Below are positions 1,975 through 39,089 of a DNA stretch of 39,506 bases, in pieces. Both the position numbers and the translations under genes were made by a program. Within the stretch, counting starts at the first letter, position 1; each line of letters starts with the position of its first letter. Origin of the DNA: Candidatus Nomurabacteria bacterium RIFCSPHIGHO2_01_FULL_36_23 (lineage in GTDB: Bacteria; Patescibacteriota; Minisyncoccia; Phycocordibacterales; UBA9973); contig MFTF01000012.1 in NCBI GenBank assembly GCA_001786745.1, forward strand, positions 1 through 39,506. Direction: 5' to 3'. Under the pieces are notes generated by a model that was not told the origin of the DNA, made no database searches, and worked only from the letters and a program-made list of their open reading frames with translations.

Positions 1975-2787
1975 ATGAAAAAGAAACCGAAAATAATAAT
2001 AATGTCTGGCTATGGGCTCAATTGCGAAGAAGAAACAAAATTCGCTTTTGAGACTGCTGGGGGAAGTGCGGACATTGTGCATATCAATGACCTAATAGCT
2101 AAACCGAAAATACTATTTCAATATCAGATTTTGGCTTTCCCGGGAGGATTTTCTTATGGAGATGACACTGGTAGCGGAAAAGCCTACGCCAATAAATTTA
2201 AAAATCACTTGACGAAAGAACTAGAGGAATTTTTATCTCGTAATACTTTGGTCATAGGTATTTGTAATGGTTTTCAAATTATGACTAATTTAGGAATTCT
2301 GCCCGGCGCGTTGACATACAATAAAAACGGTAAATATCTTGACCGCTGGGTTGATTTAAAAATTCTCTCTCCTGTTGGGGGAGGGAAAGGGAGGAGGTTA
2401 AGTCCATGGCTGAAGGGAATTAAAAAAATATCTCTCCCGATAGCCCATGGTGAAGGACATTATGTTATTAATTCTAAAAAATACCCCGAAGGAAAGAGTA
2501 TTTCCGACGGAGCAGGCAGAAAAATGAAAAAAAGTGGAGAGATAGCTTTCAAATATATAAAAGGGGAAATTTGTAAATTTCAGAATCTTGAAAAAAATCC
2601 AAATGGTTCGGATTATGATATTGCCGGAGTTTTAGCTTATAATAGCAGAGTGCTCGGTATGATGCCCCATCCAGAGCGCGCGATATTTTCTCATCAGAGT
2701 CCGATATGGTATCAAAATAAGAAAGTGTCTAAAGAGGGAAAAGGACTGCAAATTTTTAAAAACGCAATTAATTATTTTAGACAATGA
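1975..2787 (+). CDS. purQ: Phosphoribosylformylglycinamidine synthase I (glutaminase subunit)
   Basis: PGGFSYGD, GICNGFQ, PIAHGEG, GMMPHPER motifs. Confidence 0.97.
   Translation: MKKKPKIIIMSGYGLNCEEETKFAFETAGGSADIVHINDLIAKPKILFQYQILAFPGGFSYGDDTGSGKAYANKFKNHLTKELEEFLSRNTLVIGICNGFQIMTNLGILPGALTYNKNGKYLDRWVDLKILSPVGGGKGRRLSPWLKGIKKISLPIAHGEGHYVINSKKYPEGKSISDGAGRKMKKSGEIAFKYIKGEICKFQNLEKNPNGSDYDIAGVLAYNSRVLGMMPHPERAIFSHQSPIWYQNKKVSKEGKGLQIFKNAINYFRQ
2484..2516 (+). repeat. 33-bp hairpin element in frame in purQ (PEGKSISDGAG)
   Basis: CCCCGAAGGAAAGAGTATTTCCGACGGAGCAGG; closely resembles 10335-10368. Confidence 0.75.
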
Positions 2788-2898
2788 GAAACGAAATTAT
2801 ATTTTTACTGCCGTCGCATAATTTTCTGCTGAAAATTTGCTCATTCTCGAACCGTCGTTCTGCGAAAGACGGCATTAAAAGCATAATTCCGTTTCTCA
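2785..2898. mobile_element. MITE-like 114-bp element with long terminal inverted repeats
   Basis: 2786-2815 vs reverse complement of 2868-2897 match 26/30; fills the purQ-purF gap. Confidence 0.55.
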
Positions 2899-2904
2899 AA
2901 ATAT

Positions 2905-4335
2905 ATGCATAATGACCTGAATGAAAAATGCGCAGTTTTTGGAATTTTCGGAAATAAATCTTCTAAAACAGAAATAGCCAGAAAAACATATTTCGGATTA
3001 TTTGCTCTGCAACATCGCGGACAAGAACATTCGGGGATTGCCACCACTGACGGTAAAAAAATTCATCTTTATAAAGATGGCGGACTTGTAAGTCAAATTT
3101 ACACCGAAGAACTTCTTGCCAAGCTTCCGGGTTTTGCGGCTATCGGACACAATCGCTATTCTACATCTTCCGGACTTGAAGTTGAATATGCGCAACCCTT
3201 TCTTTACGATAATCTTTTTGCCTTGGGGCATAATGGTAACCTTCCAAGCACAAAAGTATTAATAGATTTTTTAAAAAGCAACAATGAAATAACAGAAAAT
3301 TATTCTGATTCGCGACTAATGACGGAAACTATCGGTGTCTATATGAAAAAGGGCGACTCATTACCAGATGCTGTCGAAAAAGCTTATCCGCTTTTTACCG
3401 GCGCATTTTCTTGCGTGGCTCTTGGGCTTGACACTATGGTTGCTTTTCGCGATCCTTGCGGTATTCGACCATTGGTCTTAGGAAAAAAAGAAAATCAAAT
3501 CATAGTATCTTCTGAAACTTGCGCGCTGGAAACCATCGGGGCAAAATTTATCCGCGAAATTAAACCAGGAGAAATGATTATTGTCACAAAAAATGGTAAA
3601 AAAAATAAAGTGCAAAGCAGGCAACTGGCAAAAGCAAAACCGCGGCTTGATATTTTTGAATTTGTTTATTTTGCGCGTTATGACAGTGTTCTCGCCGGCA
3701 AATCTGTATATGAAGTAAGAAAAAATTTAGGCAAGATGCTTGCTCGCCAGAATAAAAAGGAGAATAAAGTAAATGTTGATATGATTATACCAATTCCAGA
3801 AACGGCTATTTCAGCGGCTATCGGTTACGCCGAAGAATCCGATATACCGTTTGAAATGGGAATTTCTAAGAACCGCTACATCAATCGAACATTTATCGAA
3901 CCAACCCAAGATGTGCGTGAAGAAAAAGTAAAATTAAAATTAACTCCGCTTTCCAATGTTATCCGAGGTAAAAAAATCGCAGTGATGGACGATTCAATTG
4001 TTCGCGGAACAACAAGCAAGCAAATCGTAAAAATGCTTTTTGACGCCGGAGCGAAAGAAGTGCATTTTTTGGTAAGTTCAGCTCCGATACGATTTCCAGA
4101 TTTTTATGGTATTGACACTCCCAATCAAACTGAGCTTATTGCTTCAAAAAAAACAATAAAAGAAATTTGTAAATTTTTAGGAGCAACTTCTCTTTCTTAT
4201 TTATCAATTGATAGTATGGTAGCCGCTACGGGACTGCCCAAAAAACATTTGTCGCTTTCTTCTTTTGATGGAGTTTATCCAATTGACATACACGAACGAA
4301 AAAAAGAGATAAATTATGATGTTCCCAAAGACTAA
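2905..4335 (+). CDS. purF: Amidophosphoribosyltransferase
   Basis: Propeptide then catalytic Cys (EKCAVFG), LQHRGQE, GHNRYST, DDSIVRGTT. Confidence 0.97.
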   Translation: MHNDLNEKCAVFGIFGNKSSKTEIARKTYFGLFALQHRGQEHSGIATTDGKKIHLYKDGGLVSQIYTEELLAKLPGFAAIGHNRYSTSSGLEVEYAQPFLYDNLFALGHNGNLPSTKVLIDFLKSNNEITENYSDSRLMTETIGVYMKKGDSLPDAVEKAYPLFTGAFSCVALGLDTMVAFRDPCGIRPLVLGKKENQIIVSSETCALETIGAKFIREIKPGEMIIVTKNGKKNKVQSRQLAKAKPRLDIFEFVYFARYDSVLAGKSVYEVRKNLGKMLARQNKKENKVNVDMIIPIPETAISAAIGYAEESDIPFEMGISKNRYINRTFIEPTQDVREEKVKLKLTPLSNVIRGKKIAVMDDSIVRGTTSKQIVKMLFDAGAKEVHFLVSSAPIRFPDFYGIDTPNQTELIASKKTIKEICKFLGATSLSYLSIDSMVAATGLPKKHLSLSSFDGVYPIDIHERKKEINYDVPKD

Positions 4336-4870
4336 AAAAAAATTAGTACTTATGGTTCATGAAGGAAGTAGCCAAACGAACCTCAAAGCAATACAAAAGG
4401 CAATTAATGATGGTAAAATAAATGCTGAAATTTCCGCAGTAATTTCTGACAGTGAAGATGCGATACCGATAATAAAAAAGATGCCACCAGACTATATATG
4501 TCTCGCTGGATGGAAGAAAATTATTTCTAATGAACTTATTCAAAAATATGAGAATAGAATCTTGAATATACATCCAGGCTTAATTCCAGATACAACAGAT
4601 GGAAATGTATTAAATCCCGACAACACAGAAACCATATGGAATAAAGGTATGTATGGAAACAAAGCCATTCAAAATTTTTTAGACCAAAAAGCAACCTTTG
4701 CCGGCTCTTCCATCCATTTTTTAACTTTAAACTTTGATTTTGGACCAGTTTTGGGTAGAACTTTTGAAAAAATTGAAACTGGTGACACTATTGAATCTCT
4801 GTACTTAAGATTAAAGAAAAAAGAAAACCAGCTATATGTGGAAGTTTTAGAAAAATTATGTCAAAAATAA
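4316..4870 (+). CDS. purN: Phosphoribosylglycinamide formyltransferase (divergent)
   Basis: CLAGW, LNIHPGLIP, GSSIHF..DFGPV; pur operon context. Confidence 0.85.
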   Translation: MMFPKTKKKLVLMVHEGSSQTNLKAIQKAINDGKINAEISAVISDSEDAIPIIKKMPPDYICLAGWKKIISNELIQKYENRILNIHPGLIPDTTDGNVLNPDNTETIWNKGMYGNKAIQNFLDQKATFAGSSIHFLTLNFDFGPVLGRTFEKIETGDTIESLYLRLKKKENQLYVEVLEKLCQK

Positions 4871-6174
4871 TGCAAGTTAACAAACAAAAAATTTTAATAA
4901 TTGGCGGAGGGGGAAGAGAACATGCGATAGGATGGAAGGTCACGCAATCGCCACGGGTTGGACAGATTTTTTTCGCGCCGGGAAATGCAGGTACAGCAGA
5001 TATTGGAACGAATGTTCCCATTTCTGCTACTGATATTTCTAAACTTGTAGAATTTGCAAAAAAAGAAAAAATCGATTTAACTTTAGCAATACCCGATGAC
5101 CCGCTTGCGCTCGGCATAGTGGATGAATTCCAAAAAGCGAAACTGCGAATTTGGGGCCCGACCAAAGTAGCCGCGCAACTTGAATGGTCAAAAGTATTTT
5201 CTAAAGATTTTATGCGCCGGCATAATTTGCCGACCGCAGAGTTTGAGATTTTTGATAATTTTAAAAAAGCAAAAGAATATGTCGCAAAACAATCTCTCCC
5301 GATTGTTATTAAAGCAAGCGGACTCGCTTTAGGTAAGGGCGTAATTATTTGCCCAACACAGGAAGAAGCAAACGAAGCGCTTGAAAATATATTGGTGAAA
5401 AAAGTTTTTGGAAATTCTGGCAACCAAGTTGTGATAGAAGAATTCATGACTGGACCAGAAATTTCCATACACGCATTTTCTGATGGCAAAAATTATAAAA
5501 TGTTTCCGCCATCGCAAGATCATAAAAAAATTGGCGAGAATGATACGGGTCTTAATACTGGCGGTATGGGCACGATTGCCCCATTGCCATTTGTGAGCGA
5601 AGTTATGATGAATAAAATAGAAAAGGAAATAGTTGCTCCAACATTAAAAACAATGAGAAATGATGGGATACCATTTGAAGGTCTTTTATATCCCGGTTTA
5701 ATGCTTACAAAAGATGGTCCTAAAATTTTAGAATACAATGCCCGTTTTGGCGATCCGGAAACACAAACTTATATGAGGTTACTAGACACCGATTTATTAG
5801 ATATTGTCGATAGCTGCATTGATGGCACATTGGAAAAATTGGAGATAAAATGGAAATCCCTTTCGGCTTGCACGATAGTATTGGCTTCCGATGGTTATCC
5901 AGAAAATTATAAAAAGGGGGAAATAATTTTGGGAATTGAAGAAGCAGAAGCACAATCTGACATTATTGTATTTCATGCTGGCACGAAATTGGATGATAAA
6001 AGCAATCTTGCGACAAATGGCGGACGAGTGTTGGGAGTTTCAGCTACAGGCAATACACTAAAAGAAGCACTCACAAAAGCTTATAAAGCCATAGAAAAAA
6101 TTTCATTTGAGGGTATGCAATTCAGGAGAGATATAGGCAAAAAAAACGCTTGCCCAGCAGTAGAGATTTTATAA
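4858..6174 (+). CDS. purD: Phosphoribosylamine-glycine ligase
   Basis: IGGGGREHA, PGNAG, KASGLALGKGV, NTGGMG, EYNARFGDPE, TNGGRVL. Confidence 0.97.
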   Translation: MSKIMQVNKQKILIIGGGGREHAIGWKVTQSPRVGQIFFAPGNAGTADIGTNVPISATDISKLVEFAKKEKIDLTLAIPDDPLALGIVDEFQKAKLRIWGPTKVAAQLEWSKVFSKDFMRRHNLPTAEFEIFDNFKKAKEYVAKQSLPIVIKASGLALGKGVIICPTQEEANEALENILVKKVFGNSGNQVVIEEFMTGPEISIHAFSDGKNYKMFPPSQDHKKIGENDTGLNTGGMGTIAPLPFVSEVMMNKIEKEIVAPTLKTMRNDGIPFEGLLYPGLMLTKDGPKILEYNARFGDPETQTYMRLLDTDLLDIVDSCIDGTLEKLEIKWKSLSACTIVLASDGYPENYKKGEIILGIEEAEAQSDIIVFHAGTKLDDKSNLATNGGRVLGVSATGNTLKEALTKAYKAIEKISFEGMQFRRDIGKKNACPAVEIL

Positions 6175-6190
6175 AAGTCTCACTGCTGGG
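6149..6190 (-). repeat. 42-bp hairpin element overlapping the purD stop
   Basis: GCCCAGCAGT(A)GAGATTTT-AT-AAAAGTCTC-ACTGCTGGGC; ends GGGCAAG on the minus strand. Confidence 0.6.
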
Positions 6191-6227
6191 CTTGCATTGT
6201 AAGCATAAATTAAAGTAATATAAATAT

Positions 6228-6746
6228 ATGAAAAAAAATGCAAAAATTGGCATAATTATGGGTTCCGATTCTGATCTTGCGGTGATGGCTGAAGCGGGAA
6301 CAATTCTCGAGGAATTTAGCGTGTCTTATGAAATTACCGTCATCTCAGCGCACAGAAGTCCTGAATTAGCGCATAAATACGTTAAAAATGCTAAAAATCT
6401 AGGACTAAAAGTTATCATCGCTGGAGCGGGCGGAGCGGCGCATTTAGCTGGAGTAGCGGCATCTTTAACCACCCTGCCCGTTATTGGTATTCCAATTAAA
6501 ACAAAAAGTTTGGATGGGCTTGATTCGCTCCTTTCTACCGCGGGAATGCCTCCGGGAGTGCCAGTAGCAACTGTTGGAATAAACGCTGGCAAAAATGCAG
6601 GATTGTTAGCTATTCAAATACTTGCAATAAACAATAAAAATTTAGAAAATAAATTAATTGTTTATAAAGAAAAAATGAGTAAAGAAATAGAAATAAAAGG
6701 TGAAAAACTTTCAAAAATTGGTTATAAAAAATACTTAGATAAATAA
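6228..6746 (+). CDS. purE: N5-CAIR mutase
   Basis: [35 protein letters not shown]. Confidence 0.97.
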
Positions 6747-6754
6747 AATAAAAT

Positions 6755-7915: not shown

Positions 7916-7921
7916 AATAAA

Positions 7922-10308: not shown

Positions 10309-10380
10309 ATGGATTCTGAGACAAAAAACTGCCATCCCGAAGGAAAGTAAAGCTTCCTGCGGGACAGGAAATTGCAAAAA
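10309..10380 (+). pseudogene. Dead N-terminus of a Zn-ribbon paralog (MDSETKNCQNCK) split by a 34-bp element
   Basis: Removing 10335-10368 restores ATG GAT TCT GAG ACA AAA AAC TGC CA|A AAT TGC AAA. Confidence 0.75.
10335..10368 (+). repeat. 34-bp hairpin element, out of frame
   Basis: TCCCGAAGGAAAGTAAAGCTTCCTGCGGGACAGG; same family as 2484-2516. Confidence 0.8.
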
Positions 10381-11829
10381 ATGGAAACTAAAACATGTCA
10401 AAATTGCAAAAAAAATTTTATAATAGAATCTGAAGATTTTAATTTTTATGAAAAAATAAAAGTTCCTACACCTACTTTTTGCCCAGATTGTCGTGCACAA
10501 AGAAGATTCATTTGGCGTAACGAACGAAGTTTACATAAACGACCATGTAGTTATTGTAAAAAAGATTTTATTTCTATATATAATAATGGTGTCCCATTTC
10601 CTGTCTATTGTCATACTTGTTATTACAGTGATTCTTGGGATCCGCTTTCATATGGAAAACAATATAACCAATCAAAAACTTTTTTCTCCCAAATAAAAGA
10701 AGAAGGAGAAGGAATTGTAGATAGCCATTATTTGGTCTCTAGTCGAAATGTTACCAATTTAATTGGAAGCGTAAATCTTCGTTCATTAAGTAATTATTTT
10801 TTTGGTAGAAAACTTTCCCAGGAAGAATATAAAAGAGAAATAAATGAAATAGATTTTGGTTCAAGAAAAGTGCGTGATGAATTGTTGAAAAAATTTGAGG
10901 AGATAAAACAAAATTCTATAGTAAGAAGCACGAAACAAATCAATTGCGTTAATTGTGTGGGTGATCATTTAGAAAATGCAAAAGATTGTTATTATGTTTT
11001 TGATGGTTTTGACTTGGAAAAAGCGAGATATAGTTCTTGGGTTTTTGGAAGTAAAGACATTTCAGATTGCTTTGGTATGGGTAGTAGTGAACTTATCTAT
11101 GAAGCAATAAGTCCAGAGGAAGTTAATAATTGCAAATTTTTAATGGCTATCGATTCTTCTCACGATGTTGAATACGGACTATTTTGCCAATCATCGGGTT
11201 TTTTATTTGGATGTGTGGGCTTACGTTCAAAAGAATATTGTATTTTAAATAAAAAATATTCCAAAGAAGAATATAGTGAATTGGTTTCAAAAATAAAACA
11301 AGAAATGGAAAATAATCCATATGTTGATAAGCAAGGACTTTCTTATAGTTACGGGGAATTTTTTCCAAGTGAACTTTCTTCTTTTCTTTATAATGAAAGC
11401 ACTGCTCAAGAATATTATCCGTTAAATAAAAAAGGAGCTAAAAATATTGGTTTTGAATGGAGGGATGAAGAAATTCGTTCTTATAATATAACTATTGAAA
11501 ATGATAAAATTCCTGACAACATAAATGATGTTGATGATTCAATAATCGAAGAAGTAATAGCTTGCATGCATAAGCAAAACTGTATACATCAATGCACACA
11601 GGCTTTTAAAATAATTCCTAATGAATTACAATTCTATCACAAAATGCAAATACCATTACCAAACCTTTGCCCTAATTGTAGACATTTTGAACGTTTAGCT
11701 AGACGTAATCCAATGAAACTTTGGTTAAGAAATTGTGCTAAATGTAAAAAAGAAATTATGTCTTCATATTCCCCCGACCGACCGGAAATTGTTTACTGTG
11801 AAAAATGTTATCAGCAGGAAGTATATTGA
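10381..11829 (+). CDS. Cys-rich Zn-ribbon paralog with in-frame internal deletion
   Basis: ATG start METKTCQNCKK; paralog of 275-1936; jumps FFSQIKE|EGEGIVDS. Confidence 0.8.
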   Translation: METKTCQNCKKNFIIESEDFNFYEKIKVPTPTFCPDCRAQRRFIWRNERSLHKRPCSYCKKDFISIYNNGVPFPVYCHTCYYSDSWDPLSYGKQYNQSKTFFSQIKEEGEGIVDSHYLVSSRNVTNLIGSVNLRSLSNYFFGRKLSQEEYKREINEIDFGSRKVRDELLKKFEEIKQNSIVRSTKQINCVNCVGDHLENAKDCYYVFDGFDLEKARYSSWVFGSKDISDCFGMGSSELIYEAISPEEVNNCKFLMAIDSSHDVEYGLFCQSSGFLFGCVGLRSKEYCILNKKYSKEEYSELVSKIKQEMENNPYVDKQGLSYSYGEFFPSELSSFLYNESTAQEYYPLNKKGAKNIGFEWRDEEIRSYNITIENDKIPDNINDVDDSIIEEVIACMHKQNCIHQCTQAFKIIPNELQFYHKMQIPLPNLCPNCRHFERLARRNPMKLWLRNCAKCKKEIMSSYSPDRPEIVYCEKCYQQEVY

Positions 11830-14322: not shown

Positions 14323-15558
14323 ATGCGAGAATTTTTAAAAACAAGATATGCTTCTGGCGTTATTTTGCTCACAGCTCTAGTTTTTGTTTTGGGTATTTAT
14401 GTAGGATACAATCAGCGTCCCGAGATAGAAAAAGTTTTTAATCTTTCTGGAAAAGAAACTACAGTTATTACCCAAACTGATTTTTCTCCTTTTTGGAAAG
14501 TCTGGAATACTATTAATGAAAAATATCCCGATGCGAATGAAATAACTGACCAAAATAAAGTTTATGGAGCAATTTCGGGCCTTGTGGATTCATTAAATGA
14601 TCCTTATAGTGTATTTTTTAGTCCGGATGAAACAAAATTATTTGAAGACGAAATAGCTGGTAGTTTCGGTGGGATTGGCATGGAAGTTGATATAAAAGAT
14701 AAAGTGCTCACAGTTGTTGCTCCGCTTAAAAATACTCCCGCTTATCGGGCTGGCATAAAACCGGGAGATAAAATTTTAAAAATTGATAAAATTACCACCC
14801 CTGATTTAAGGATTGAAGAAGCGCTTAAATTAATAAGAGGGGAGAAGGGTACAATTGTCACACTCACTATTCTCCATGATGGAGAAAAAGAATCGAGAGA
14901 AATAAAAATTATTAGAGATATTATAAATGTCCCAACTCTGGATACGGAATTGCGTCCTGATGGAATTTTCGTAATAAAATTTTATAGTTTTTCGGCCAGC
15001 TCCAACTCTTTATTCCGTGATGCCTTAAAGAAATTTGCTCTGGCAAAAACTGACAAATTTCTACTTGATTTAAGGGGTAATCCGGGAGGATATTTAGATA
15101 TAGCTGTTGATATATCAAGCTGGTTTTTACCGGGAGGAAAAATTATTGTAACTGAAGATTATGGAAATAATAAAGAACCGGAGATATTTAGAAGCAAAGA
15201 TTATAATTTATTCAATGATAAATTAAAATTTATAATTTTAATAGACGGCGGGTCCGCTTCGGCATCGGAAATTGTCGCTGGCGCAATGCAGGATTATAAA
15301 CGAGCAATTATAGTGGGTGGCAAAAGCTACGGCAAGGGTTCTGTGCAAGAAGTTGTAAATGTGACTCCAGATACTATTTTAAAAATTACAGTCGCTAAGT
15401 GGTTTACGCCTAATGGAAATTTGATTACTGAAAAAGGATTGACCCCGGATTACATAGTAGAAAATAAAAAACCTGCCCGCAATGCTTTGCCTAGCGATGC
15501 AGGCGGGGATCCACAAATGGATAAAGCCGTAGAATTATTAAATAATTGGCCTCGTTAA
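14323..15558 (+). CDS. ctpA: S41 carboxyl-terminal processing protease with PDZ domain
   Basis: LNDPYS, GGIG, DLRGNPGG, SASASEI, SYGKGSVQ. Confidence 0.95.
   Translation: MREFLKTRYASGVILLTALVFVLGIYVGYNQRPEIEKVFNLSGKETTVITQTDFSPFWKVWNTINEKYPDANEITDQNKVYGAISGLVDSLNDPYSVFFSPDETKLFEDEIAGSFGGIGMEVDIKDKVLTVVAPLKNTPAYRAGIKPGDKILKIDKITTPDLRIEEALKLIRGEKGTIVTLTILHDGEKESREIKIIRDIINVPTLDTELRPDGIFVIKFYSFSASSNSLFRDALKKFALAKTDKFLLDLRGNPGGYLDIAVDISSWFLPGGKIIVTEDYGNNKEPEIFRSKDYNLFNDKLKFIILIDGGSASASEIVAGAMQDYKRAIIVGGKSYGKGSVQEVVNVTPDTILKITVAKWFTPNGNLITEKGLTPDYIVENKKPARNALPSDAGGDPQMDKAVELLNNWPR
15472..15507 (+). repeat. 36-bp palindromic element in frame (PARNALPSDAGG)
   Basis: CCTGCCCGCAATGCTTTGCCTAGCGATGCAGGCGGG; copy 1 of 4. 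Confidence 0.92.
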
Positions 15559-15567: not shown

Positions 15568-16032
15568 ATGAAAATAATATTTTTACATGATGTGCCAAGA
15601 GTAGGAAAAAAATATGACGTGAAAGAAGTAAATGGCGGTTATGCCATGAACTTTTTATTACCCAGAAAACTGGCCGAACCAGCAACAACGAAGTCCCTAG
15701 CCATGCTTGAAAGACGCAAAAAAGAAATTGCGATTGAAAGGGAAGTGCAGGAAGATCTTTTAATGAAAAATTTGGAAGAAATCAAGGATAAAGTTGTGAC
15801 AATAAAAGTAAAAGCAGATGAAAGGGGTCATTTATTCGCTCAAGTCCATAAAAAAGAAATAATCGATGGCATGAAAAATGAACATCGCGCCGATATCAGT
15901 GAAGAATTTATTATTTTAGAAAAACCAATTAAAACAATAGGGGAGTTTGAAATACCGATTAAGGTGAAAATCGCCGCCGAAGGCGGGGCAAGCAAAAAAT
16001 CTTCTTTTAAACTTGTGGTGGAAAAAATCTAA
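15568..16032 (+). CDS. rplI: 50S ribosomal protein L9
   Basis: [26 protein letters not shown]; PIKTIG. Confidence 0.95.
15972..15992 (+). repeat. 21-bp hairpin+GCAAG element in frame in rplI (AAEGGAS)
   Basis: CGCCGCCGAAGGCGGGGCAAG; 16/21 identical to 38660-38680. Confidence 0.65.
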
Positions 16033-23947: not shown

Positions 23948-24328
23948 TCAATATACTTCCTGCTGATAACATTTTTCGCAATACACTGTCTCCGGTCTCT
24001 CTGGAGAATATGAGGTTTCAAATTCCACTTTACACTTCCCTGCTCCATGAAAATGATTTATTTTGCTTTGCCCGTCGTAGCTTTGCGAAGTCGGGTCGCA
24101 CATGCACTTTCGATGCCAAAGTTTAAATGGATTTCTTCGCGCAACTCTTGCCGTATGACGACAATAGAAACAACGTTTGGGAATTGGAATCTGCATTTTT
24201 CTGTAAAAAATCAATTCATTGGGAACGATTTTGTAATTTCTTTTACATTCAATACAGGCAAAAACTTCTTTCGGCTCAATGGTAAAGTCTTGCTTGCAAT
24301 TTTGACATATTTTCGTTTCGCTTCGCAT
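23948..24328 (-). CDS. Minimal Zn-ribbon paralog (N- and C-termini fused; possible pseudogene)
   Basis: ETKICQNCKQDFTIEP joined directly to KEVFACIECK...YCEKCYQQEVY. Confidence 0.7.
   Translation of the reverse strand: MRSETKICQNCKQDFTIEPKEVFACIECKRNYKIVPNELIFYRKMQIPIPKRCFYCRHTARVARRNPFKLWHRKCMCDPTSQSYDGQSKINHFHGAGKCKVEFETSYSPERPETVYCEKCYQQEVY
24066..24095 (-). repeat. 30-bp hairpin element in frame (PTSQSYDGQS)
   Basis: CCCGACTTCGCAAAGCTACGACGGGCAAAG; removal gives CMCD|KINH. Confidence 0.7.
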
Positions 24329-24377: not shown

Positions 24378-24974
24378 TTAAATACTATTTTCTTTTTTCA
24401 TTTCTTCCATCAAATTTTGGGCTACGATTTCGATCTCTTTACGAACTTTTCCATAATCGGGTAACTCTTCAATGGATTTTATACCCATATAAGACATTAA
24501 TTCAAAACTTGGTTTATAGATATAACGTCTGCTATCTTTGCTGTCGGTTTCTCTCTCTATCAATCCACGAACGGACAAAGCGCGCAGAGTAAAACTTGAA
24601 TTTACACCCCTGATATAATCAATCTCCGCTCTACTCACTCCGTTTTTATAAAGAACAATAGACAATGTTTCCAAGCTGGCTTTGGAAAGTTCTTTATTTA
24701 ATTCTTCTTTTTGCAAAGCTTCAAAAAGTTTAGAGAGTTCAGGCGGAGTTCCTAAAGTAATCTCCCCGCCTGCATCGCTATGCGAAGCATTGCGGGCAGG
24801 ATTGTTTTTCTCTAATAACACTATTCCTCTATTCTCTAAATTATTTTTTAAATTAAAAACAGCATCTTTTATTTCCTTTGTTGAAACTTTCAAAATATCT
24901 TCTAGTTTTTTAAAAGACACTGGCTCCCCTTTCCAAAATAGTATCGCCTCAATTTTTGACTCCAAATTAATCAT
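24378..24974 (-). CDS. scpB: SMC-Scp complex subunit ScpB
   Basis: IEAILF..GEP, LSKASLETLSIVLY, IDYIRGVNS. Confidence 0.95.
   Translation of the reverse strand: MINLESKIEAILFWKGEPVSFKKLEDILKVSTKEIKDAVFNLKNNLENRGIVLLEKNNPARNASHSDAGGEITLGTPPELSKLFEALQKEELNKELSKASLETLSIVLYKNGVSRAEIDYIRGVNSSFTLRALSVRGLIERETDSKDSRRYIYKPSFELMSYMGIKSIEELPDYGKVRKEIEIVAQNLMEEMKKENSI
24765..24800 (-). repeat. 36-bp palindromic element in frame (PARNASHSDAGG)
   Basis: CCTGCCCGCAATGCTTCGCATAGCGATGCAGGCGGG; copy 2 of 4. Confidence 0.92.
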
Positions 24975-30532: not shown

Positions 30533-30537
30533 GCAGT

Positions 30538-31004: not shown

Positions 31005-31021
31005 GAAAGGAAGGAAAACCA

Positions 31022-31603: not shown

Positions 31604-31610
31604 CAATATT

Positions 31611-31645
31611 TCTATTCTATAATTCTATAGAATATTAGAATACTA
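31611..31645. repeat. 35-bp AT-rich hairpin repeat, copy 2
   Basis: Inverted match to 1934-1968 at 31/35. Confidence 0.7.
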
Positions 31646-31647
31646 TT

Positions 31648-31724
31648 TTAAGTATGCGCGTCGATTTTGGCCGCAAGAATGAAATCATTTACGGCACGCA
31701 TCTTTTCCTCAATAAATTACTCAT
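31648..31724 (-). pseudogene. Hollowed pterin-carbinolamine dehydratase remnant
   Basis: MSNLLRKRCVP fused out of frame to NDFILAAKIDAHT*; both ends match 30061-30405. Confidence 0.88.
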
Positions 31725-31731
31725 TAATTTT

Positions 31732-32178: not shown

Positions 32179-32776
32179 ATGCATATTTAGCAAGTATGTC
32201 AAATTCTAAATTTACCATATCTCCTTTTTTTTTATATTTTAAATTCGTATGTTTCAGAGTGTACGGAATAATTTTCACAATAAAAGAATTATGTAAAACT
32301 TTAACGACTGTCAGACTAATCCCCTCTACCGCAACCGACCCTTTGTAAATTAAAAATTTCTTTAAATTTTTGGCCGGCCCGCCTGCAACGCTATGCGTAG
32401 CATTGCGGGCAGGTATTTTTATTTCAAACACTTGCGAATTTTCTTCCTTTTTTATACTAATAATTTTGCCTTTTCCGTCAATATGTCCAAGCACCATGTG
32501 ACCATTTAGTCTATCGTCGAAACGTATTGAACGTTCAATATTTACTGTATCATCTTTTTTCAAAAAATTTAAATTGGAAAGTTTGAGAGTTTCCGGCATA
32601 TATTCAAAAAAGATATTTTTACCTGTTTTATTTACCGTAGAACAAATACCGTTGATACTTATGCTTTCTCCTAATTTTATTTTTCCTAAATTATTTAAAA
32701 TTGTTAAAGAAATACCGCTTTTATGAGATGTTATGTTTTTTACTTTTGCAGTTTTAGAAATTATGCCTGTGAACAT
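32162..32776 (-). CDS. ribE: Riboflavin synthase (alpha chain)
   Basis: MFTGII, INGICSTV, GHMVLGHIDG, KGSVAVEGISLTV, VNLEFDILAKY. Confidence 0.96.
   Translation of the reverse strand: MFTGIISKTAKVKNITSHKSGISLTILNNLGKIKLGESISINGICSTVNKTGKNIFFEYMPETLKLSNLNFLKKDDTVNIERSIRFDDRLNGHMVLGHIDGKGKIISIKKEENSQVFEIKIPARNATHSVAGGPAKNLKKFLIYKGSVAVEGISLTVVKVLHNSFIVKIIPYTLKHTNLKYKKKGDMVNLEFDILAKYAYANKK
32378..32413 (-). repeat. 36-bp palindromic element in frame (PARNATHSVAGG)
   Basis: CCTGCCCGCAATGCTACGCATAGCGTTGCAGGCGGG; copy 3 of 4. Confidence 0.92.
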
Positions 32777-33099
32777 TTTTTTATATCTTTTTTAATCTGC
32801 GCGATAAGTTTTTTCTCTGTTTTAAATTTTTTGAATTTTCTCAAAAATTCTTTTATTTCAAGAATTACTTTTTTCCTATATGCATCTCCGTTATATCTTA
32901 TTAGGTGAGCTTCGATCTTTCTATTGGGACCAACGACAATCCCCGCCCGATATTTTATATCATCCAAAACTGCTATTCCGACATAAATTCCGTCCGGAGG
33001 AAATTCTTTCGTTTCTGCATCTAAGTTTACAGTGGGAAATCCTAATTTTTTACCATATCCATCGCCCTTTATAACCTTACCGGAAATTATGTAATGCAT
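32761..33099 (-). CDS. Stand-alone riboflavin kinase domain
   Basis: G.VIKGDGYGKKLGFPTVNL, IEAHL, QIKKDI; lacks the FAD synthetase domain. Confidence 0.9.
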   Translation of the reverse strand: MHYIISGKVIKGDGYGKKLGFPTVNLDAETKEFPPDGIYVGIAVLDDIKYRAGIVVGPNRKIEAHLIRYNGDAYRKKVILEIKEFLRKFKKFKTEKKLIAQIKKDIKKCSQA

Positions 33100-33106
33100 T
33101 AAAAAA

Positions 33107-34501
33107 TTATTTTACTAATTTTATTCCCAATTCTTTCAATTGCTTTTCCTCTAAAGGTTTTGGCGCGTTCATCACAGCCGTTTTTCCACCTCTCGTCATT
33201 GGAAAAGCTACAACTTCGCGGAGATATGATTCACCTGTAAAATTCATTAGATTGCGCTCCACTCCAAGACCAATGCCCCCGTGAGGAGGCACACCATATG
33301 TAAATGCCTTAAGCATATGACCAATTCTATCTTCTATTTCTTTTTCAGAATATCCCATAACTTTATATGTAGCTTTTAAAATTTCTGGTTTGTGGGCGCG
33401 AATCGAACCCCCGCCGGATTCATAACCATTACACACTAAATCATATTGAGTGGTTAAAATATTTTTTATATTCTCACCCTTTATAAGCCACTCTACATGC
33501 TCTGGTATTGGCATAGAAAAGGGATTGTGGGTAAAAGTCCATTTTCCATTGTCTATTTTTTCAAAAAATGGAAAATTCACTACCCATGCATACGCGAGTA
33601 TATTTTTATTCTTTTTTTCTTCTTCGGTACGCATATCAAATTTATCGGCTCCGTATTTTTCTATTGATTCCTTGTGGGTAATTCTCGGGAATGGTTTTTG
33701 CTTTATGGTAAAACCCATGGATTCTACTACCGTAGTCATCATCTCTTCTATAAGATTCATAACGTCTTCCATCTCCACAAAAGACATTTCTACATCTACT
33801 TGAGTATGTTCAAATCCTCTGTCGGCTCGAAGATCTTCGTCCCTTAAAGCGCGCGCAATCTGAAAATATTTTTCAAAACCGCCTGTCATCAATAATTGTT
33901 TATACTGCTGTGGAGATTGAGGCAAGGCATAAAAATTTCCAGGATTAAGACGAGACGGCACAACAAAATCCCTTGAACCCTCCGGAGTAGATTCCGTCAA
34001 AAGCGGAGTTTCTATTTCTGTAAACATTTTAGAAAATAAAAATTCTCTAACCTTTTTTACAAACTCGCTTCTCATTCTTATGTTTTTTTGCATTCGTTCT
34101 GAACGCAAATCAAGATAACGATAAGCCAAGCGTGTTTCTTCATTTATTCCACTGGTATCATTTGTAATATCAAATGGAAGTGTTTCTGATTTATTTAAGA
34201 TTTCAATATTTGTCACTTCTAGCTCTACTTCCCCATTCAGTATCCCCGCTTTTACATTTTTATCTGGACGCTTATTCACAATGCCGATAATTTTTAAAAC
34301 CCACTCCGGCCTAATTTCTTTCGCAACCTCCATTACCTCCTTTCTGTTTGGTATGACAATAGCCTGCGCCTTGCCCGTCATATCGCGCATATCAAAAAAC
34401 ACCATTTTCCCCTGATCTCTTCTCACATCCACCCATCCGGCGATAGTCACTTCTTTCCCCACGTGATCTTTTAAATCTTTAATATAAATACGATTTTTCA
34501 T
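33107..34501 (-). CDS. aspS: Aspartate-tRNA ligase (short, lacks GAD insertion)
   Basis: RYLDLR, TPEGSRDF, LPQSPQQYKQ, RDEDLRADR, PPHGGIGLG. Confidence 0.95.
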   Translation of the reverse strand: MKNRIYIKDLKDHVGKEVTIAGWVDVRRDQGKMVFFDMRDMTGKAQAIVIPNRKEVMEVAKEIRPEWVLKIIGIVNKRPDKNVKAGILNGEVELEVTNIEILNKSETLPFDITNDTSGINEETRLAYRYLDLRSERMQKNIRMRSEFVKKVREFLFSKMFTEIETPLLTESTPEGSRDFVVPSRLNPGNFYALPQSPQQYKQLLMTGGFEKYFQIARALRDEDLRADRGFEHTQVDVEMSFVEMEDVMNLIEEMMTTVVESMGFTIKQKPFPRITHKESIEKYGADKFDMRTEEEKKNKNILAYAWVVNFPFFEKIDNGKWTFTHNPFSMPIPEHVEWLIKGENIKNILTTQYDLVCNGYESGGGSIRAHKPEILKATYKVMGYSEKEIEDRIGHMLKAFTYGVPPHGGIGLGVERNLMNFTGESYLREVVAFPMTRGGKTAVMNAPKPLEEKQLKELGIKLVK

Positions 34502-34538
34502 CTCAAGTATTTTATCATAAATTAAAAAAGAAAAATAG

Positions 34539-34618
34539 CTAACTCATCAATCCCAATTTCATCAACCTAGAACGTATGCCCCAGTTTTTAAAATATTTAA
34601 CGCCTGTTCTTGAGTCAT
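34539..34618 (-). pseudogene. Hollowed remnant, probably of a PIF1-like helicase/AAA ATPase
   Basis: MTQEQALNILKTGA then, in another frame, IRSRLMKLGLMS*; family assignment from recalled termini only. Confidence 0.6.
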
Positions 34619-34620
34619 AG

Positions 34621-34899
34621 TTAAAATATTCTTCCATTGATAATTTCGTATACTATCCGACGATGAGCAATTGCAAAAATTTTTATTTTATTGTCTTCTA
34701 TACGAAAAATTATCCTATAATCACCAACTCGCAACTTAAAATAATTCTTGAGCGATTTTCGTAGCGGTTTTCCATATAAGTCTGGTTCACTTGCCAATTT
34801 TGTCTCAAAAGCTTGTTTTATGCGAACTTTGTACGAACCTGATATCTTGGGAATATCAATTTTTACAACCTTATCTACATATATGATTTCATAGGTCAT
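34621..34899 (-). CDS. RelE/ParE-family toxin
   Basis: GKPLRKSLKNYFKLRVGDYRIIF, IAHRRIVYE. Confidence 0.92.
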   Translation of the reverse strand: MTYEIIYVDKVVKIDIPKISGSYKVRIKQAFETKLASEPDLYGKPLRKSLKNYFKLRVGDYRIIFRIEDNKIKIFAIAHRRIVYEIINGRIF

Positions 34900-34906
34900 G
34901 CAATAT

Positions 34907-35128
34907 CTATGCCCATGTTTGTTTGTGAGTTAAAAAACGAGCATTTTTTGTGTCACGCTCACTCGCCATTTTATCAAAAGCAATATCTTCTTCAATTTCA
35001 AGAGCAAGCCCCAAAAGATACACCGCTTTCGTAGCCTGTGGCATATTGTCACGCTTAGCAATACGAGAAAGCATTGTATCCAAACTCGATGATAAAGAAA
35101 TATTTATCCTTTTTTTTATTGTTGTCAT
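34907..35128 (-). CDS. Antitoxin (ribbon-helix-helix-like)
   Basis: KRINISL strand, LEIEED, LTHKQTW; immediately upstream of the toxin. Confidence 0.85.
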   Translation of the reverse strand: MTTIKKRINISLSSSLDTMLSRIAKRDNMPQATKAVYLLGLALEIEEDIAFDKMASERDTKNARFLTHKQTWA

Positions 35129-35134
35129 GTAAAT

Positions 35135-35164
35135 AGTGTATCAAAAGTGTATCACCTTTGTCAA
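35135..35164 (-). promoter_or_regulatory. TA promoter with direct-repeat operator
   Basis: TTGACA-N18-TACACT, 6 nt before ATG; TGATACACT twice at 12-bp period. Confidence 0.7.
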
Positions 35165-35185
35165 ATAGTTTATGTGGATAAATAA

Positions 35186-35230
35186 AAACAACGAGCAACA
35201 TTTCCTCCTTTCGGATGTTGCTCGTTGTTT
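35186..35230 (-). terminator. Intrinsic terminator after orphan gene
   Basis: Perfect 16-bp IR AAACAACGAGCAACAT/ATGTTGCTCGTTGTTT with T-rich tail on the minus strand. Confidence 0.75.
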
Positions 35231-35287
35231 GAGAGTTAATCAGGACTCTCATCCTGTTGCTCGGGTAGCGCCGAATCGACAATTTTC

Positions 35288-35629
35288 TTAGAAATGTGCA
35301 AAATTGTAAAAACGGCCGGCACCAAAAACCTCTTTGCAAATAACATCTACCACAACCGGCGCTTTGTCGGGGTTCTCCCTTGTCCAGTCGTTGGAAGATA
35401 GCGCTCTAGCCAATCGTTCTCCAAACTTTTCTAGAGTATCTGCTTCTCTAAAAAACATTGCGCTTGCAGAGGCAATAACAGTTGCCTCTTTTACTTCTCC
35501 CGAGGACCTGTTAGTTTCTGTGACCTCCATCCTAAATAAGAGGATACATTTCTCATCGGTATACCAATCAAGTAATCCTGATTTGTATTCTTCTGTCTGA
35601 TGCGATTCGTATTTCTCGGTTTGTCCCAT
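35288..35629 (-). CDS. Hypothetical protein
   Basis: 113 aa, RBS GGAAGGGAG, downstream terminator; no family recognised. Confidence 0.7.
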   Translation of the reverse strand: MGQTEKYESHQTEEYKSGLLDWYTDEKCILLFRMEVTETNRSSGEVKEATVIASASAMFFREADTLEKFGERLARALSSNDWTRENPDKAPVVVDVICKEVFGAGRFYNFAHF

Positions 35630-35706
35630 TTCTTTTTCTCCCTTCCAAAGAACTAAATTCTGACCTCTATAAGAGACCAGTTGGAGGAGTCAAAATGTTA
35701 TAAAAA

Positions 35707-35796
35707 TTACTTCGGCACCTTGAAACAAGTCTCTTTTGAAAAGTTGCAATAGCCGTGATAATAAAAATTGATTTTTTGAAAAGTTTTGATATTCAT
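35707..35796 (-). CDS. Putative leader peptide 2 (29 aa)
   Basis: MNIKTFQKINFYYHGYCNFSKETCFKVPK; resembles leader 1. Confidence 0.4.
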   Translation of the reverse strand: MNIKTFQKINFYYHGYCNFSKETCFKVPK

Positions 35797-35811
35797 AAAT
35801 TTAAATGAAAC

Positions 35812-35835
35812 AAAAAAACCGCTCTGTGGGCGGTC
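35812..35835 (-). terminator. Attenuator terminator after leader peptide 1
   Basis: GACCGC-CCACAGA-GCGGTT followed by a T run. Confidence 0.75.
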
Positions 35836-35861
35836 TTTTGTGCTTGGTTTTAGTAAATTAA

Positions 35862-35930
35862 TTAGCAAAAAGAAGACCGTCCTATTGGGCAGGTGTAATA
35901 GTTCACAGAAAATTTAACTAATAAATTCAT
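35862..35930 (-). CDS. Putative leaderless leader peptide 1 (22 aa)
   Basis: MNLLVKFSVNYYTCPIGRSSFC; TTGACA-N18-TATTAT ends 6 nt before ATG. Confidence 0.6.
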   Translation of the reverse strand: MNLLVKFSVNYYTCPIGRSSFC

Positions 35931-35987
35931 GCTTTTATAATAGCATAATGCTTCCCATAGTGTCAACTTTTATGCGATGGTTCTTTT

Positions 35988-36938
35988 TCAATATACCTGT
36001 ACCCCAATTTTTTCTCGCACTTCGTTCATTTTAGCTGAAGCGACTTTTTTTGCTTTTTCACTACCGGCTTTTAGGATTGCCAACACTTTAGGAATATCTT
36101 TGGCAAATTCTTTTCTTCGCTCGCGCAACGGCGCAATGAATTTTTCTAAATCATCTATTAACATCTCTTTAAGTTCTTTATATTTACCAGCTTTCTCTTC
36201 GTAAATTTTCTTTAATTCATCTTCGCTACGAAAAAGTTTATGAATAGCATAGACATTTTTAGGAATTCCTCCACTGGAATCAGTTACAATACTCATCACA
36301 CATTTTTTAATTTCTTCATATTCGGCAAAAAGTGGAATAGTATTATTGTAACTTTTAGACATTTTTCTGCCATCAGTCCCTGGTATAATCGCCACATCTT
36401 TTATAATCATCGCCTCTGGCAGTTTGAAAGTTTCGCCAAAAGTATTATTAAATTTTTCCGCTGTATCACGCGCAATTTCAACGTGTTGTTTTTGATCAGC
36501 GCCGACTGGCACAACATCAGGACTATAAAGTAAAATGTCCGCCGCCATAAGCATCGGATAATTAAAAGTGCCAACATCAATTTCTTTATTTCTCGCTTGC
36601 GCGTCTTTAAAAGCATGCGCTCGCATCAGATACGGCATTGTGGTAATAGTTTCAAAAATCCAAGCAAGTTCAGTGTGTTCGGAAATGTCGCTTTGTTTAA
36701 AAAAAGTTACTTTTTGCGGATCAAGACCTAATGCTAAATAATCAAGTACAACATTTTTTATGTTCTCACTCATTTCTTTTGGATTTCGAAGGGAATGCAA
36801 AGCATGATAATCAGCGATAAAGACATAACCATCGTGCTCATTTTGCAAATCAACAAATTGTTTCATTGCCCCAAAATAGTTGCCAATATGCGGTTTTCCT
36901 GAGGGTTGGACACCTGATAAAAATATCTTTTTAGACAT
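35988..36938 (-). CDS. trpS: Tryptophan-tRNA ligase
   Basis: SGVQPSG..HIGNYFGA, YPMLMAADIL, VPVGADQ, KMSKS. Confidence 0.97.
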   Translation of the reverse strand: MSKKIFLSGVQPSGKPHIGNYFGAMKQFVDLQNEHDGYVFIADYHALHSLRNPKEMSENIKNVVLDYLALGLDPQKVTFFKQSDISEHTELAWIFETITTMPYLMRAHAFKDAQARNKEIDVGTFNYPMLMAADILLYSPDVVPVGADQKQHVEIARDTAEKFNNTFGETFKLPEAMIIKDVAIIPGTDGRKMSKSYNNTIPLFAEYEEIKKCVMSIVTDSSGGIPKNVYAIHKLFRSEDELKKIYEEKAGKYKELKEMLIDDLEKFIAPLRERRKEFAKDIPKVLAILKAGSEKAKKVASAKMNEVREKIGVQVY

Positions 36939-37043
36939 GTTTGCATTTTAACATATAATCTTGAATTATGAAATTTTGTAATTAACATCTTAGTAACAGT
37001 TTTACGCACCTTGTCACTTTGACAATTTTTCTACTGTGTTAGA

Positions 37044-38453
37044 ATGGCTTTAATGGCAAAGATAACAAAAAGCAATAAAACTAATCTCCGCATTCCCCCT
37101 CAAAGCATTGAATCCGAACAAGCAGTATTGGGTTCCATAATGCTCCGCAAAGATGCAATGCACGAAGTAGAGGACATGGTTAGTCCGGAATCTTTTTACG
37201 TTGAAAAACACAAAAAGATTTTTCAAGCGATGCTTGATTTATCTCTTAAGAATGAACCGATAGACATGCTTTCACTCTCAACAAAACTAGGTGAAAAAAA
37301 ATTGCTGGATCAAGTGGGGGGCAATAAGTATCTCGCAGAAATAGTAAATGTTGTGCCTTCTTCCACGAACATTAAACACTACGCTGATATTGTTCAAAAA
37401 AAATATGTTTTAAGAAGTTTAATAGAAGCGGCCGACTACGTGTCTGAACTTGCCTTTGAAGAAGGCGATGACCATATGGATGATATATTAGACATGGCGG
37501 AAAAGAAAATTTTCGGCGTAGTTTCATCTCCGAAAAATCAAAAATTCATAAATTTAAAAGACGCGTTGCCCGAAGCTTATGAACGTTTGGAAAGATTGCA
37601 CGAAAATAAGGGAATGTTGCGTGGACTTCCGACTGGCTTCAAAGATTTGGATTTGATACTTTCGGGCTTGCAAAAATCTGATTTGGTAATTCTCGCAGCC
37701 CGACCCTCAATGGGTAAAACTACTCTTGCGCTTGATATTGCTCGCATGTCTTCTGTCGTTCACGAGAAATCAGTATTGGTATTTTCTCTCGAAATGTCTT
37801 CTCAGCAATTAGTAGATAGGATGCTCTCGGCGCAATCTAGGGTCAACGCTTGGAATTTGCGTACTGGTCGTCTTTCTTCTGATCGTGAATTCTCTCAGCT
37901 TCGAGATTCGTTGGATAAGTTAGCTAAAGCAAAAATTTATATTGATGATCAGCCGGGAAACTCTATAGTTAGAATGAAAGCTCTATCGCGAAGATTAAAA
38001 GCAGAAAAAGGGCTTGACCTTATAGTGGTTGATTACCTGCAACTTATGACCACTTCAAAAAATTACGATTCAATGGTCAATCAAGTAACAGAAATTTCCA
38101 GATCATTGAAAAGCTTGGCCAAGGAGTTAAATGTGCCAGTGCTAGCGCTTTCTCAGCTTTCCCGCGCGGTAGAATCAAGGGGTGGCAAGCCAAGATTATC
38201 CGACCTCCGCGATTCCGGCTCTATTGAACAAGACGCGGATGTTGTAATGTTTATTCATAGAGAGGACAAAGGAAAAGACGAATCGGAAAAAACAAACATC
38301 GCCGAAATTTTAATTGAGAAACATCGCAATGGCCCGACTGGAAAAATTGAACTTTATTTTGATGAAAAAACAACAACATTCTTGAACCTTGAAAAAAGCA
38401 ATATTAGCGAATTCGCGACCAAAAAAGTAAATGAGGATTTAGATGAATTTTAA
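37044..38453 (+). CDS. dnaB: Replicative DNA helicase
   Basis: PPQSIESEQAVLG, ARPSMGKT, FSLEMS, VDYLQL, SDLRDSGSIEQDAD; no intein. Confidence 0.98.
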   Translation: MALMAKITKSNKTNLRIPPQSIESEQAVLGSIMLRKDAMHEVEDMVSPESFYVEKHKKIFQAMLDLSLKNEPIDMLSLSTKLGEKKLLDQVGGNKYLAEIVNVVPSSTNIKHYADIVQKKYVLRSLIEAADYVSELAFEEGDDHMDDILDMAEKKIFGVVSSPKNQKFINLKDALPEAYERLERLHENKGMLRGLPTGFKDLDLILSGLQKSDLVILAARPSMGKTTLALDIARMSSVVHEKSVLVFSLEMSSQQLVDRMLSAQSRVNAWNLRTGRLSSDREFSQLRDSLDKLAKAKIYIDDQPGNSIVRMKALSRRLKAEKGLDLIVVDYLQLMTTSKNYDSMVNQVTEISRSLKSLAKELNVPVLALSQLSRAVESRGGKPRLSDLRDSGSIEQDADVVMFIHREDKGKDESEKTNIAEILIEKHRNGPTGKIELYFDEKTTTFLNLEKSNISEFATKKVNEDLDEF

Positions 38454-38462
38454 TACAGACAG

Positions 38463-39089
38463 ATGGATATTATCGATAAATTAACTGAAATTTTTAAAGA
38501 ATTTCCCGGAATTGGAGAACGACAAGCAAGACGTTTTGTCTATTTTTTAATGTCTAGAACTCCTGCCTATAATGAAAATTTAACGGGACTTGTTTCAGAA
38601 TTGAAAAAAGAAATAGCGCAGTGCGGAGAATGTTTTAGATTTTTTATTGTTGGAAAAAACCCCACCAAAGACAGGGCAAGTAAAATCTGTGATATCTGCT
38701 CTAATATCCATACTGATTCTTCTATTTTAATGATCGTTGAAAAAGATTCTGATTTAGAAAGTGTAAAGAAAAGCCGAGTTTATAATGGCAAATATTTTAT
38801 TTTAGGCGGACTCGTGCCGATTGTTGAAAAAAATACTAAAAAAAGAATTCGCATTGAAGAATTAAAAGGAAAAATTAAAAATGATAAGAAGTTAAAAGAA
38901 ATAATTCTAGCTTTTTCCATCAGCCCTCAGGGTGATCATACTGATTCTTATGTTCGAGAACAGATTAAGGACATTGTAGAAAAATTAAAAATAAAAATAT
39001 CTTCTCTTGGTAAAGGTCTCTCCACCGGCACGGAGCTAGAATACTCTGACAACGACACTCTCAAAAATGCGTTAAAAAACAGGCAATAA
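38463..39089 (+). CDS. recR: Recombination protein RecR
   Basis: FPGIGERQARR, C4 zinc finger, YFILGG, G.STGTELEYSD..TL..AL..R. Confidence 0.95.
   Translation: MDIIDKLTEIFKEFPGIGERQARRFVYFLMSRTPAYNENLTGLVSELKKEIAQCGECFRFFIVGKNPTKDRASKICDICSNIHTDSSILMIVEKDSDLESVKKSRVYNGKYFILGGLVPIVEKNTKKRIRIEELKGKIKNDKKLKEIILAFSISPQGDHTDSYVREQIKDIVEKLKIKISSLGKGLSTGTELEYSDNDTLKNALKNRQ
38660..38680 (+). repeat. Decayed 21-bp element in frame in recR (PTKDRAS)
   Basis: CCCCACCAAAGACAGGGCAAG; 16/21 identical to the rplI copy. Confidence 0.55.

Follow-up and report, generated by a model that had tools for sequence, protein, structure and literature searches.

Dispersed tailed hairpins in a Candidatus Nomurabacteria genome and their possible derivation from small GIY-YIG nuclease cassettes

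Introduction

How repetitive extragenic palindromic (REP)-like and Rickettsia-type palindromes spread without a transposase is an open question in those excerpts of the literature on which we draw (PMC3733652, PMC11893778). In a system described recently in Chenal et al. (2025), the Ssn nuclease cuts beside a hairpin repeat, the NTS, whose loop can be removed or extended, and a mobile origin was suggested for the unit NTS-ssnA-NTS (excerpts of PMC11893778). Here we describe a family of short hairpins with a conserved tail on one side, six copies of which were listed in an initial annotation of a 39,506-nucleotide stretch (hereafter the window) of Candidatus Nomurabacteria bacterium RIFCSPHIGHO2_01_FULL_36_23 (assembly GCA_001786745.1, contig MFTF01000012.1, positions 1 to 39,506 of the forward strand). 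The window is contig C12 of a genome of 556,503 bases with 35-39 % GC. Comparison of the hairpin ends with those of cassettes that carry a single gene for a GIY-YIG nuclease leads us to favour, by a small measure, the explanation that the hairpins are gene-less derivatives of such cassettes and that the nuclease is likely to help them move; the quantitative link between the arms of the cassettes and those of the tailed hairpins is what is new.

The family resembles the Ssn/NTS system in pairing a single-domain GIY-YIG gene product of about 90 residues with a dispersed hairpin that has a dispensable loop and an oriented, non-palindromic flank. It differs in the position of the gene, which is enclosed by the arms of a single hairpin and not, as in Ssn/NTS, by whole repeats, in the proportion of copies that lie within genes (51 of 111, against 2 % for NTS), and in that the nearest solved relatives of the nuclease belong to the Slx1 family. 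The SRM consensus occurs in none of 161 elements and in none of 120 GIY-YIG flanks, with one match in the genome compared with 0-2 in controls, and a search for NTS with up to 4 mismatches gave no match. Patescibacteria are not mentioned in the Ssn paper (PMC11893778).

The GTAG and CGTC REPs, the REPINs and the RAYT systems offer a second comparison, since there too hairpins of 20-40 nt have a tetranucleotide at one foot and some are in frame in genes. Here, however, the foot is CYTG/CARG, the interiors vary freely and no cognate HUH gene is flanked; the CGTC repeats themselves are left without an enzyme in the excerpts of PMC3733652. The Rickettsia palindromic elements are likewise palindromic repeats that stand in frame in conserved genes of a bacterium with a small genome (excerpts of PMC3733652), although they have another sequence and lineage and the arms described here point to a candidate nuclease cassette. 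The TIRYT, or subclass 2.1, category describes the six HUH genes of the present genome, whose palindromes are other repeat families. Bacterial miniature inverted-repeat transposable elements (MITEs) are gene-less derivatives with the terminal inverted repeats of an autonomous partner. Shared terminal inverted repeats are found here as well, and the cassettes often show direct repeats of 4-5 bp, but the partner is a GIY-YIG nuclease and not a DDE transposase, and the tailed hairpins are far shorter and have no duplication. The family is REP/RAYT-like in architecture and Ssn/NTS-like in enzyme type, and is a member of neither. Searches of the open-access literature for these hairpins, and for cassettes in Patescibacteria with a GIY-YIG gene between inverted repeats, yielded a description of neither, although the supplementary homologue lists of the Ssn paper may include such proteins.

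Six insertions in the window

All six stretches are real insertions of one family, and their coordinates, strands and lengths are as initially annotated. They are listed here together with the gene stub that one of them interrupts.

2484..2516, + strand: hairpin with CAGG tail, 33 nt, in frame in purQ; no duplication
10335..10368, + strand: hairpin with CAGG tail, 34 nt, at CA^A of a Gln codon in the N-terminal stub of a zinc-ribbon gene; frameshifting, no duplication
10309..10383, + strand: the interrupted stub MDSETKNC-Q-NCKK (start at 10309), followed directly by a second start (ATG at 10381) that repeats the same motif
15972..15992, + strand: hairpin with CAAG tail, 21 nt, in frame near the end of rplI (L9)
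38660..38680, + strand: decayed copy, 21 nt, in the zinc-finger loop of recR
24066..24095, - strand: copy with CAAAG tail, 30 nt, in frame at GA^C in a zinc-ribbon C-terminal motif
6149..6194, - strand: hairpin of 38 nt (6153-6190) between two CTTG, overlapping the purD stop codon

The copies had been described as having a CCC(G)...(C)GGG stem followed by a CAAG or CAGG tail. This is correct as the architecture of the family, in which a fixed stem base (YCCCG...CGGGR) encloses a variable paired interior and is followed by CAGG or CAAG, but it does not hold for two of the six. The tail at 24066 is CAAAG, and the 'tail' of the 6149 copy is more simply read as a 4-bp target duplication because CTTG stands on both sides of it (6149-6152 and 6191-6194); this copy looks like the product of such a duplication, and the other five are without one.

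Four copies are in frame inside intact open reading frames (ORFs), namely those of purQ, rplI, recR and the zinc-ribbon ORF at 24066, in agreement with the initial annotation, and the predicted gaps in orthologues are present in purQ, rplI and the zinc-ribbon gene. The window purQ has 33 nt more than 27 of 29 orthologues and, in the segment concerned, 28 codons compared with 17 in 24 of the 26 relatives that could be parsed, and removal of the 33 nt, tail included, restores a Tyr codon at TA^C. All 32 rplI orthologues are shorter by 21 nt. The zinc-ribbon motif that contains the 24066 copy is 38 codons long, whereas 15 of 29 homologous rows have 28, and an identical copy is present in a paralogue on contig C13. 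Compared with the commonest form of the recR loop (nine codons, in 21 of 30 orthologues), the window gene has gained a net 15 nt and not 21; a relative, G228, has a copy of its own in the same loop in a different frame, and the window copy is probably a member of the family, judging by its likeness to the intact 21-mers. The 10335 copy is not simply intergenic, since it lies within the Gln codon of the N-terminal stub, and the gene now begins immediately downstream, at what is presumably a secondary start (10381). Streamlined genomes of the candidate phyla radiation carry many small insertions of this kind, which reshape loops of L9, L21, RecR, PurQ and other proteins.

There is a second insert in the window purQ (2365-2397), which is purine/pyrimidine-biased and encodes SPVGGGKGRR in a segment of 14 codons where five are the norm. 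The loop concerned is an insertion hotspot, being longer than five codons in 14 of 28 parsed sequences, with several unrelated hairpins among the inserts.

Abundance and insertion behaviour of the family

The prediction that more copies would be present genome-wide was borne out. This genome has 31 hairpins in which CAGG or CAAG follows a GC stem, compared with 1-8 in ten Markov controls. The pattern YCCCG-N6-30-CGGGRCARG has 332 matches in 51 of the 61 genus genomes scanned, 17 of them in the present genome, and the reversed pattern has six; the genus comprises 212 genomes, of which the closest have about 77-79 % DNA identity to this one, and the tally takes in one unpublished genome on which no claim rests. 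Across the order, the same pattern gives 226 matches in 79 of 151 genomes, and its reverse gives 35. Where the same repeat occurs, the loci are labelled as Patescibacteria, in many cases as 'Candidatus Nomurabacteria'. A loose hairpin detector was also tried and was dropped as too permissive.

The stem varies by compensating changes. Among 123 purQ-type copies, which include close kin and are not independent rows, the three stem pairs that the search pattern does not fix are complementary in 121, 123 and 122 copies respectively, with two common pair types at each. The reading frame leaves an equally clear mark: with the tail counted, the length is a multiple of three in 49 of 51 database copies within long ORFs and in 33 of the 60 that lie elsewhere (p 3e-7). 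In the same 111 copies the insertion is preceded by A in 91 and followed by C or T in 85. Of the fixed tetra- or pentanucleotide 5′ target expected of non-autonomous IS200/IS605 derivatives, the purQ-type subfamily shows just this one-nucleotide A bias; TTCA precedes a subset of the CCCCGCC-type copies but also begins some cassette ends. Among 86 tailed hairpins the 5′ flank equals the tail in two, and a duplication outside the tail is seen in one. Since the multiples of three include the tail, and since the 5′ flank so seldom equals it, the four tail nucleotides belong to the inserted unit.

The family has thus been mobile in the past, its unit boundaries are established and its stems are under selection; frameshifting copies have been purged from genes. 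Those that keep the frame in surface loops probably survive and add 7-12 residues to the proteins. The initial view of the hairpins as inserted mini-elements that occur in many variants with one architecture is upheld by these findings.

Folded alone, the purQ, 10335 and 6149 copies are more stable than shuffled sequences (z -3.1, -3.3 and -6.1 among the three), whereas the recR, 24066 and rplI copies are little or no better (z -0.3, -0.8 and -1.5). The weak folding of these three, and the tolerance of the purQ and recR loops for many unrelated inserts, would suit chance hairpins, terminators or products of local slippage that have no common origin. We nevertheless regard such an explanation as refuted for the family, and as hardly credible for the six stretches, in view of the excess of matches over the reversed pattern, the covariation, the selection for multiples of three, the clean empty sites and the lack of a T-tract.

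Three further observations concern individual copies and ends. A 20-nt copy on contig C8 (38356-38394) is nested in another copy, the two together measuring 39 nt, in frame and with clean empty orthologues. On contig C22 (9485-9572) a tailed hairpin faces the 3′ end of a tRNA, which itself ends in CCCCGA-CAAG like the right end of the element. In six genomes the commonest ends are CAAG, CAGG, TAAA and TGAA, in each of which the first and last bases are complementary.

GIY-YIG cassettes and their arms

The cassettes are 280-350 bp long and have one gene, encoding an Slx1-like GIY-YIG nuclease of about 87 residues, between hairpin arms. When the flanks of small GIY-YIG genes are inspected the gene is seen to sit between the two arms of one hairpin, and the right arm often holds the stop codon; genes of the 'YYEA' type had arm-like inverted repeats around them in all five cases in the genomes that were read. 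The cassette query consisted of three genes chosen for inverted repeats, and it gave a set of 124 loci, many of them near kin. An inverted-repeat score of at least 12 was reached by 28 of 40 loci in the genus, compared with 45 of 400 controls (11 %), and by 23 of 80 further loci, compared with 8 of 400 controls with swapped flanks.

The arms of the tailed hairpins match those of the cassettes beyond the shared base. Among hairpins that have this base, 17 of 41 with a tail agree with the two arms of one cassette at 12 or more of 16 positions, compared with 8 of the remaining 153 (arm-permutation null 2.6 %; Mann-Whitney p 8e-13). The 24066 and 6149 rows of this comparison, which are off by one base, are not relied on, and the two 21-mers are too short to score. 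The purQ copy matches at 12 of 16 positions, a value reached in 9 of 300 permutations. The 6149-6190 copy was also compared with a cassette of 347 bp on contig C1 (12683-13029), and 16 of the 18 positions at one cassette end and 15 of the 18 at the other are the same; the two have the same one-base asymmetry, one T-A pair is changed to C-G, and the 6149 copy is the only place in this genome with both arms of the C1 cassette within 3 mismatches. The 89-residue nuclease encoded by the C1 cassette, the ends of that cassette and its apparent 38-nt derivative are found together in one genome. Gene-less hairpins also exist that have exact cassette arms round a short interior, some of them with TAAA or TGAA ends of the cassette type. 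The number of hairpin copies rises weakly with the number of GIY-YIG genes (rho 0.33, 61 related genomes).

The cassette nuclease matches only PF01541 among Pfam families, and residues Y5, Y17, G19, R27, H31 and E63 are kept in all 53 aligned copies. Its predicted structure (pLDDT 90.7) has Slx1 and UPF0213 proteins as nearest folds, the best at an E-value of 6e-3 and none at E<=0.001. Profile comparison gives matches to 1zg2 (E 5e-14) and 1ywl (E 3e-10), both of which are placed in the Slx1 family in the excerpts of PMC1564403. No match to the nuclease was found in the viral contigs or plasmids searched. A tree of 120 GIY-YIG proteins (quick method, 87 columns) has few supported forks; the arm types cluster on it, with 20 changes compared with 56 when shuffled, but no co-evolution is claimed because near-copies explain much of this clustering.

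In one group of cassettes (L246, L406, L497-L501, L505, L517, L519 and L524) the element is located at a start codon, and both of its sides carry the 4-5 bases that follow the A of the ATG. Genes for four-helix-bundle (PF05635) and DUF559 proteins were also considered as partners of the hairpins and rejected, their flanks being other repeats. On contig C4, at about 4700-5100 (L276; also L277 and L278), a weak PF05635 match marks an Avd-like gene beside an AAC-rich, repeat-like stretch, an arrangement that we take to resemble a diversity-generating retroelement. On contig C23 (L279) the ORF of a leucyl-tRNA synthetase includes a DUF559 domain, in frame, together with several hairpin inserts that are rich in purines.

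A possible mechanism and its difficulties

The arm comparisons argue, if not strongly, for a derivation of the tailed hairpins from GIY-YIG cassettes by loss of the gene. By analogy with the Ssn nucleases and their NTS repeats, the nuclease may recognize the foot of the hairpin and the oriented tail on single-stranded or cruciform DNA and nick there. It would ignore the loop, which could therefore be occupied by a gene, by a smaller hairpin or by a further copy. GIY-YIG enzymes are hydrolytic and are not known to carry out strand transfer, so that host repair would have to join the released or copied strand to the DNA at a nicked A^Y site; frame and loop tolerance would then decide which copies survive. 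We put forward more tentatively, and as a proposal that may well fail, that an Slx1-like GIY-YIG nuclease mobilizes elements of about 280-350 bp and that their gene-less hairpins of 20-45 nt move as single strands without duplication, all without a DDE, HUH, serine or tyrosine recombinase, which would make them a new class of bacterial mobile DNA. If this were true, a new set of loop-tolerant, single-stranded DNA nucleases would be at hand, the hairpins would be supplying essential proteins throughout Patescibacteria with novel peptide loops, and the cassette, with one gene in the loop of one hairpin, would be among the smallest autonomous DNA elements.

Several results weigh against the derivation from cassettes or against part of it. 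The cassette frequencies given above are biased upward because the query genes were chosen for having inverted repeats. The 10335 copy matches the arms at 11 of 16 positions, which is not significant (45 of 300 permutations), and in the window a sharing of cassette ends is shown for the purQ and 6149 copies. None of 55 cassettes with defined ends has a CAGG or CAAG tail, nor is one with such a tail recognizable among the 150 of 298 long-gap matches listed. Flanking direct repeats of 4-5 bp are present in 28 of these 55 cassettes, compared with 2 of 86 tailed hairpins, so that the two may not move alike. No complete tailed hairpin lies within 130 nt of any of 120 GIY-YIG genes, in contrast to the Ssn/NTS arrangement. 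Of 34 rows within ORFs, taken from several genomes, 17 have a net gain that differs from the element length by at most 1 nt and 24 one that differs by at most 3 nt, although the misses include detector errors and local deletions. Some insertion sites are common to different species, so that many copies must be old. Finally, no empty allele was seen in any strain: Logan contigs in four plus four runs gave no listed gaps at 93 %, and at 80 % gave noise from relatives, a result that says nothing about current activity because the contigs drop rare variants.

Some of these difficulties would be removed if the hairpins were the primary repeat and the GIY-YIG genes were passengers or, as in Ssn/NTS, site-specific single-stranded DNA nucleases located within the hairpin that they target, the repeat being spread by host recombination, template switching or DNA uptake and the nuclease serving only to trim or regulate it. 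The differences in tail and duplication and the age of many copies would fit, as would the nested copies, in which hairpins attract hairpins, and Ssn nucleases do not move their repeat but cut beside its hairpin and make the integration of transforming DNA less frequent (excerpts of PMC11893778). On the other hand, near-identical units at many unrelated sites, placed with single-nucleotide precision and an A^Y bias, are hard to obtain through homologous recombination, and the cassettes that have direct repeats of 4-5 bp in different flanking sequences resemble the products of transposition. We therefore consider this alternative unlikely, though one to be taken seriously, and continue to prefer the derivation of the hairpins from the cassettes.

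HUH transposase genes

A connection of the hairpins with HUH (RAYT/IS200-like) transposases, proposed in the initial annotation, is not supported. There are six Y1_Tnp genes in this genome, on contigs C1, C2 (two), C6, C11 and C22, and 48 of the 61 genus genomes have HUH genes, with up to 11 each, but none of the 39 loci compared (6 here and 29 + 4 from relatives) is bracketed by the family; they are flanked by short palindromes of their own or by IS605-type ends. The HUH protein motifs NHFH, FQ, YIHLNP and SS fit subclass 2.1, genes of which are described as having terminal repeats and no REPs (excerpts of PMC6006769); TIRYT genes with terminal repeats are likewise described in the excerpts of PMC3733652. 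The six genes here are subclass-2.1-like, with a palindrome of about 20-27 nt upstream and again at or in the stop codon, and several of the palindromes that flank HUH genes are dispersed repeat families distinct from the tailed hairpins.

Other results agree with this separation. A relative, genome G171, which is 100 % complete, has 21 exact copies of the hairpin and no PF01797 match, copy number and HUH gene number are uncorrelated over 61 genomes (rho 0.05), and the GTRG foot of REPs occurs in none of 86 exact copies, the foot being CYTG on one strand. That the hairpins are nonetheless REP- or REPIN-like substrates of an HUH enzyme (RAYT, TIRYT or IS200/IS605 TnpA), with CYTG as the guide tetranucleotide and the gene lost or missed, seems to us improbable. 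In its favour, HUH systems are marked by insertion that is precise and free of duplication and by an oriented tetranucleotide at the foot of a hairpin (excerpts of PMC8266576), HUH genes are common in the genus, an IS200/IS605-type TnpA in genome G033 (L037) has ends with CCCC...GGGG stems, and one HUH gene has a tailed copy 86 nt away on one side. The hypothesis is weakened by the results above but still alive, because an enzyme may be lost after its repeats have spread and because insertion free of duplication is HUH-like.

Related and neighbouring repeats

Four further inserts in the window belong to a related class with a length of 36 nt.

15472..15507, - strand: 36-nt class, in frame in an S41 protease gene
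24765..24800, + strand: 36-nt class, in frame in scpB
32378..32413, + strand: 36-nt class, in frame in a riboflavin synthase gene
39347..39385, + strand: 39-nt variant of the 36-nt class, in frame in rplU (L21)

The tailed hairpins had been labelled a second class of mini-element. The distinction is a soft one, since the 36-bp class shares the CGGG-CAGG end and adjoins another group of GIY-YIG genes, being present in 5 of 120 GIY-YIG flanks compared with a background of 1.5 %. Outside the window it is found within copies of the 5′ end of a tRNA that precede genes of this group, and the insertion is precise and without duplication. A number of loci (L201, L257, L417, L458, L480, L483, L495 and L520) have a GIY-YIG gene preceded by a copy of the 5′ part of the neighbouring tRNA that a hairpin element interrupts, and are natural pairs of filled and empty sites in which insertion was precise and left no duplication.

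Other inverted repeats are present in the window. Arms of 31 nt follow purQ at 2785-2898, and a 41-nt AT-rich element occurs in two copies of opposite orientation, at 1934-1974 and 31605-31645.

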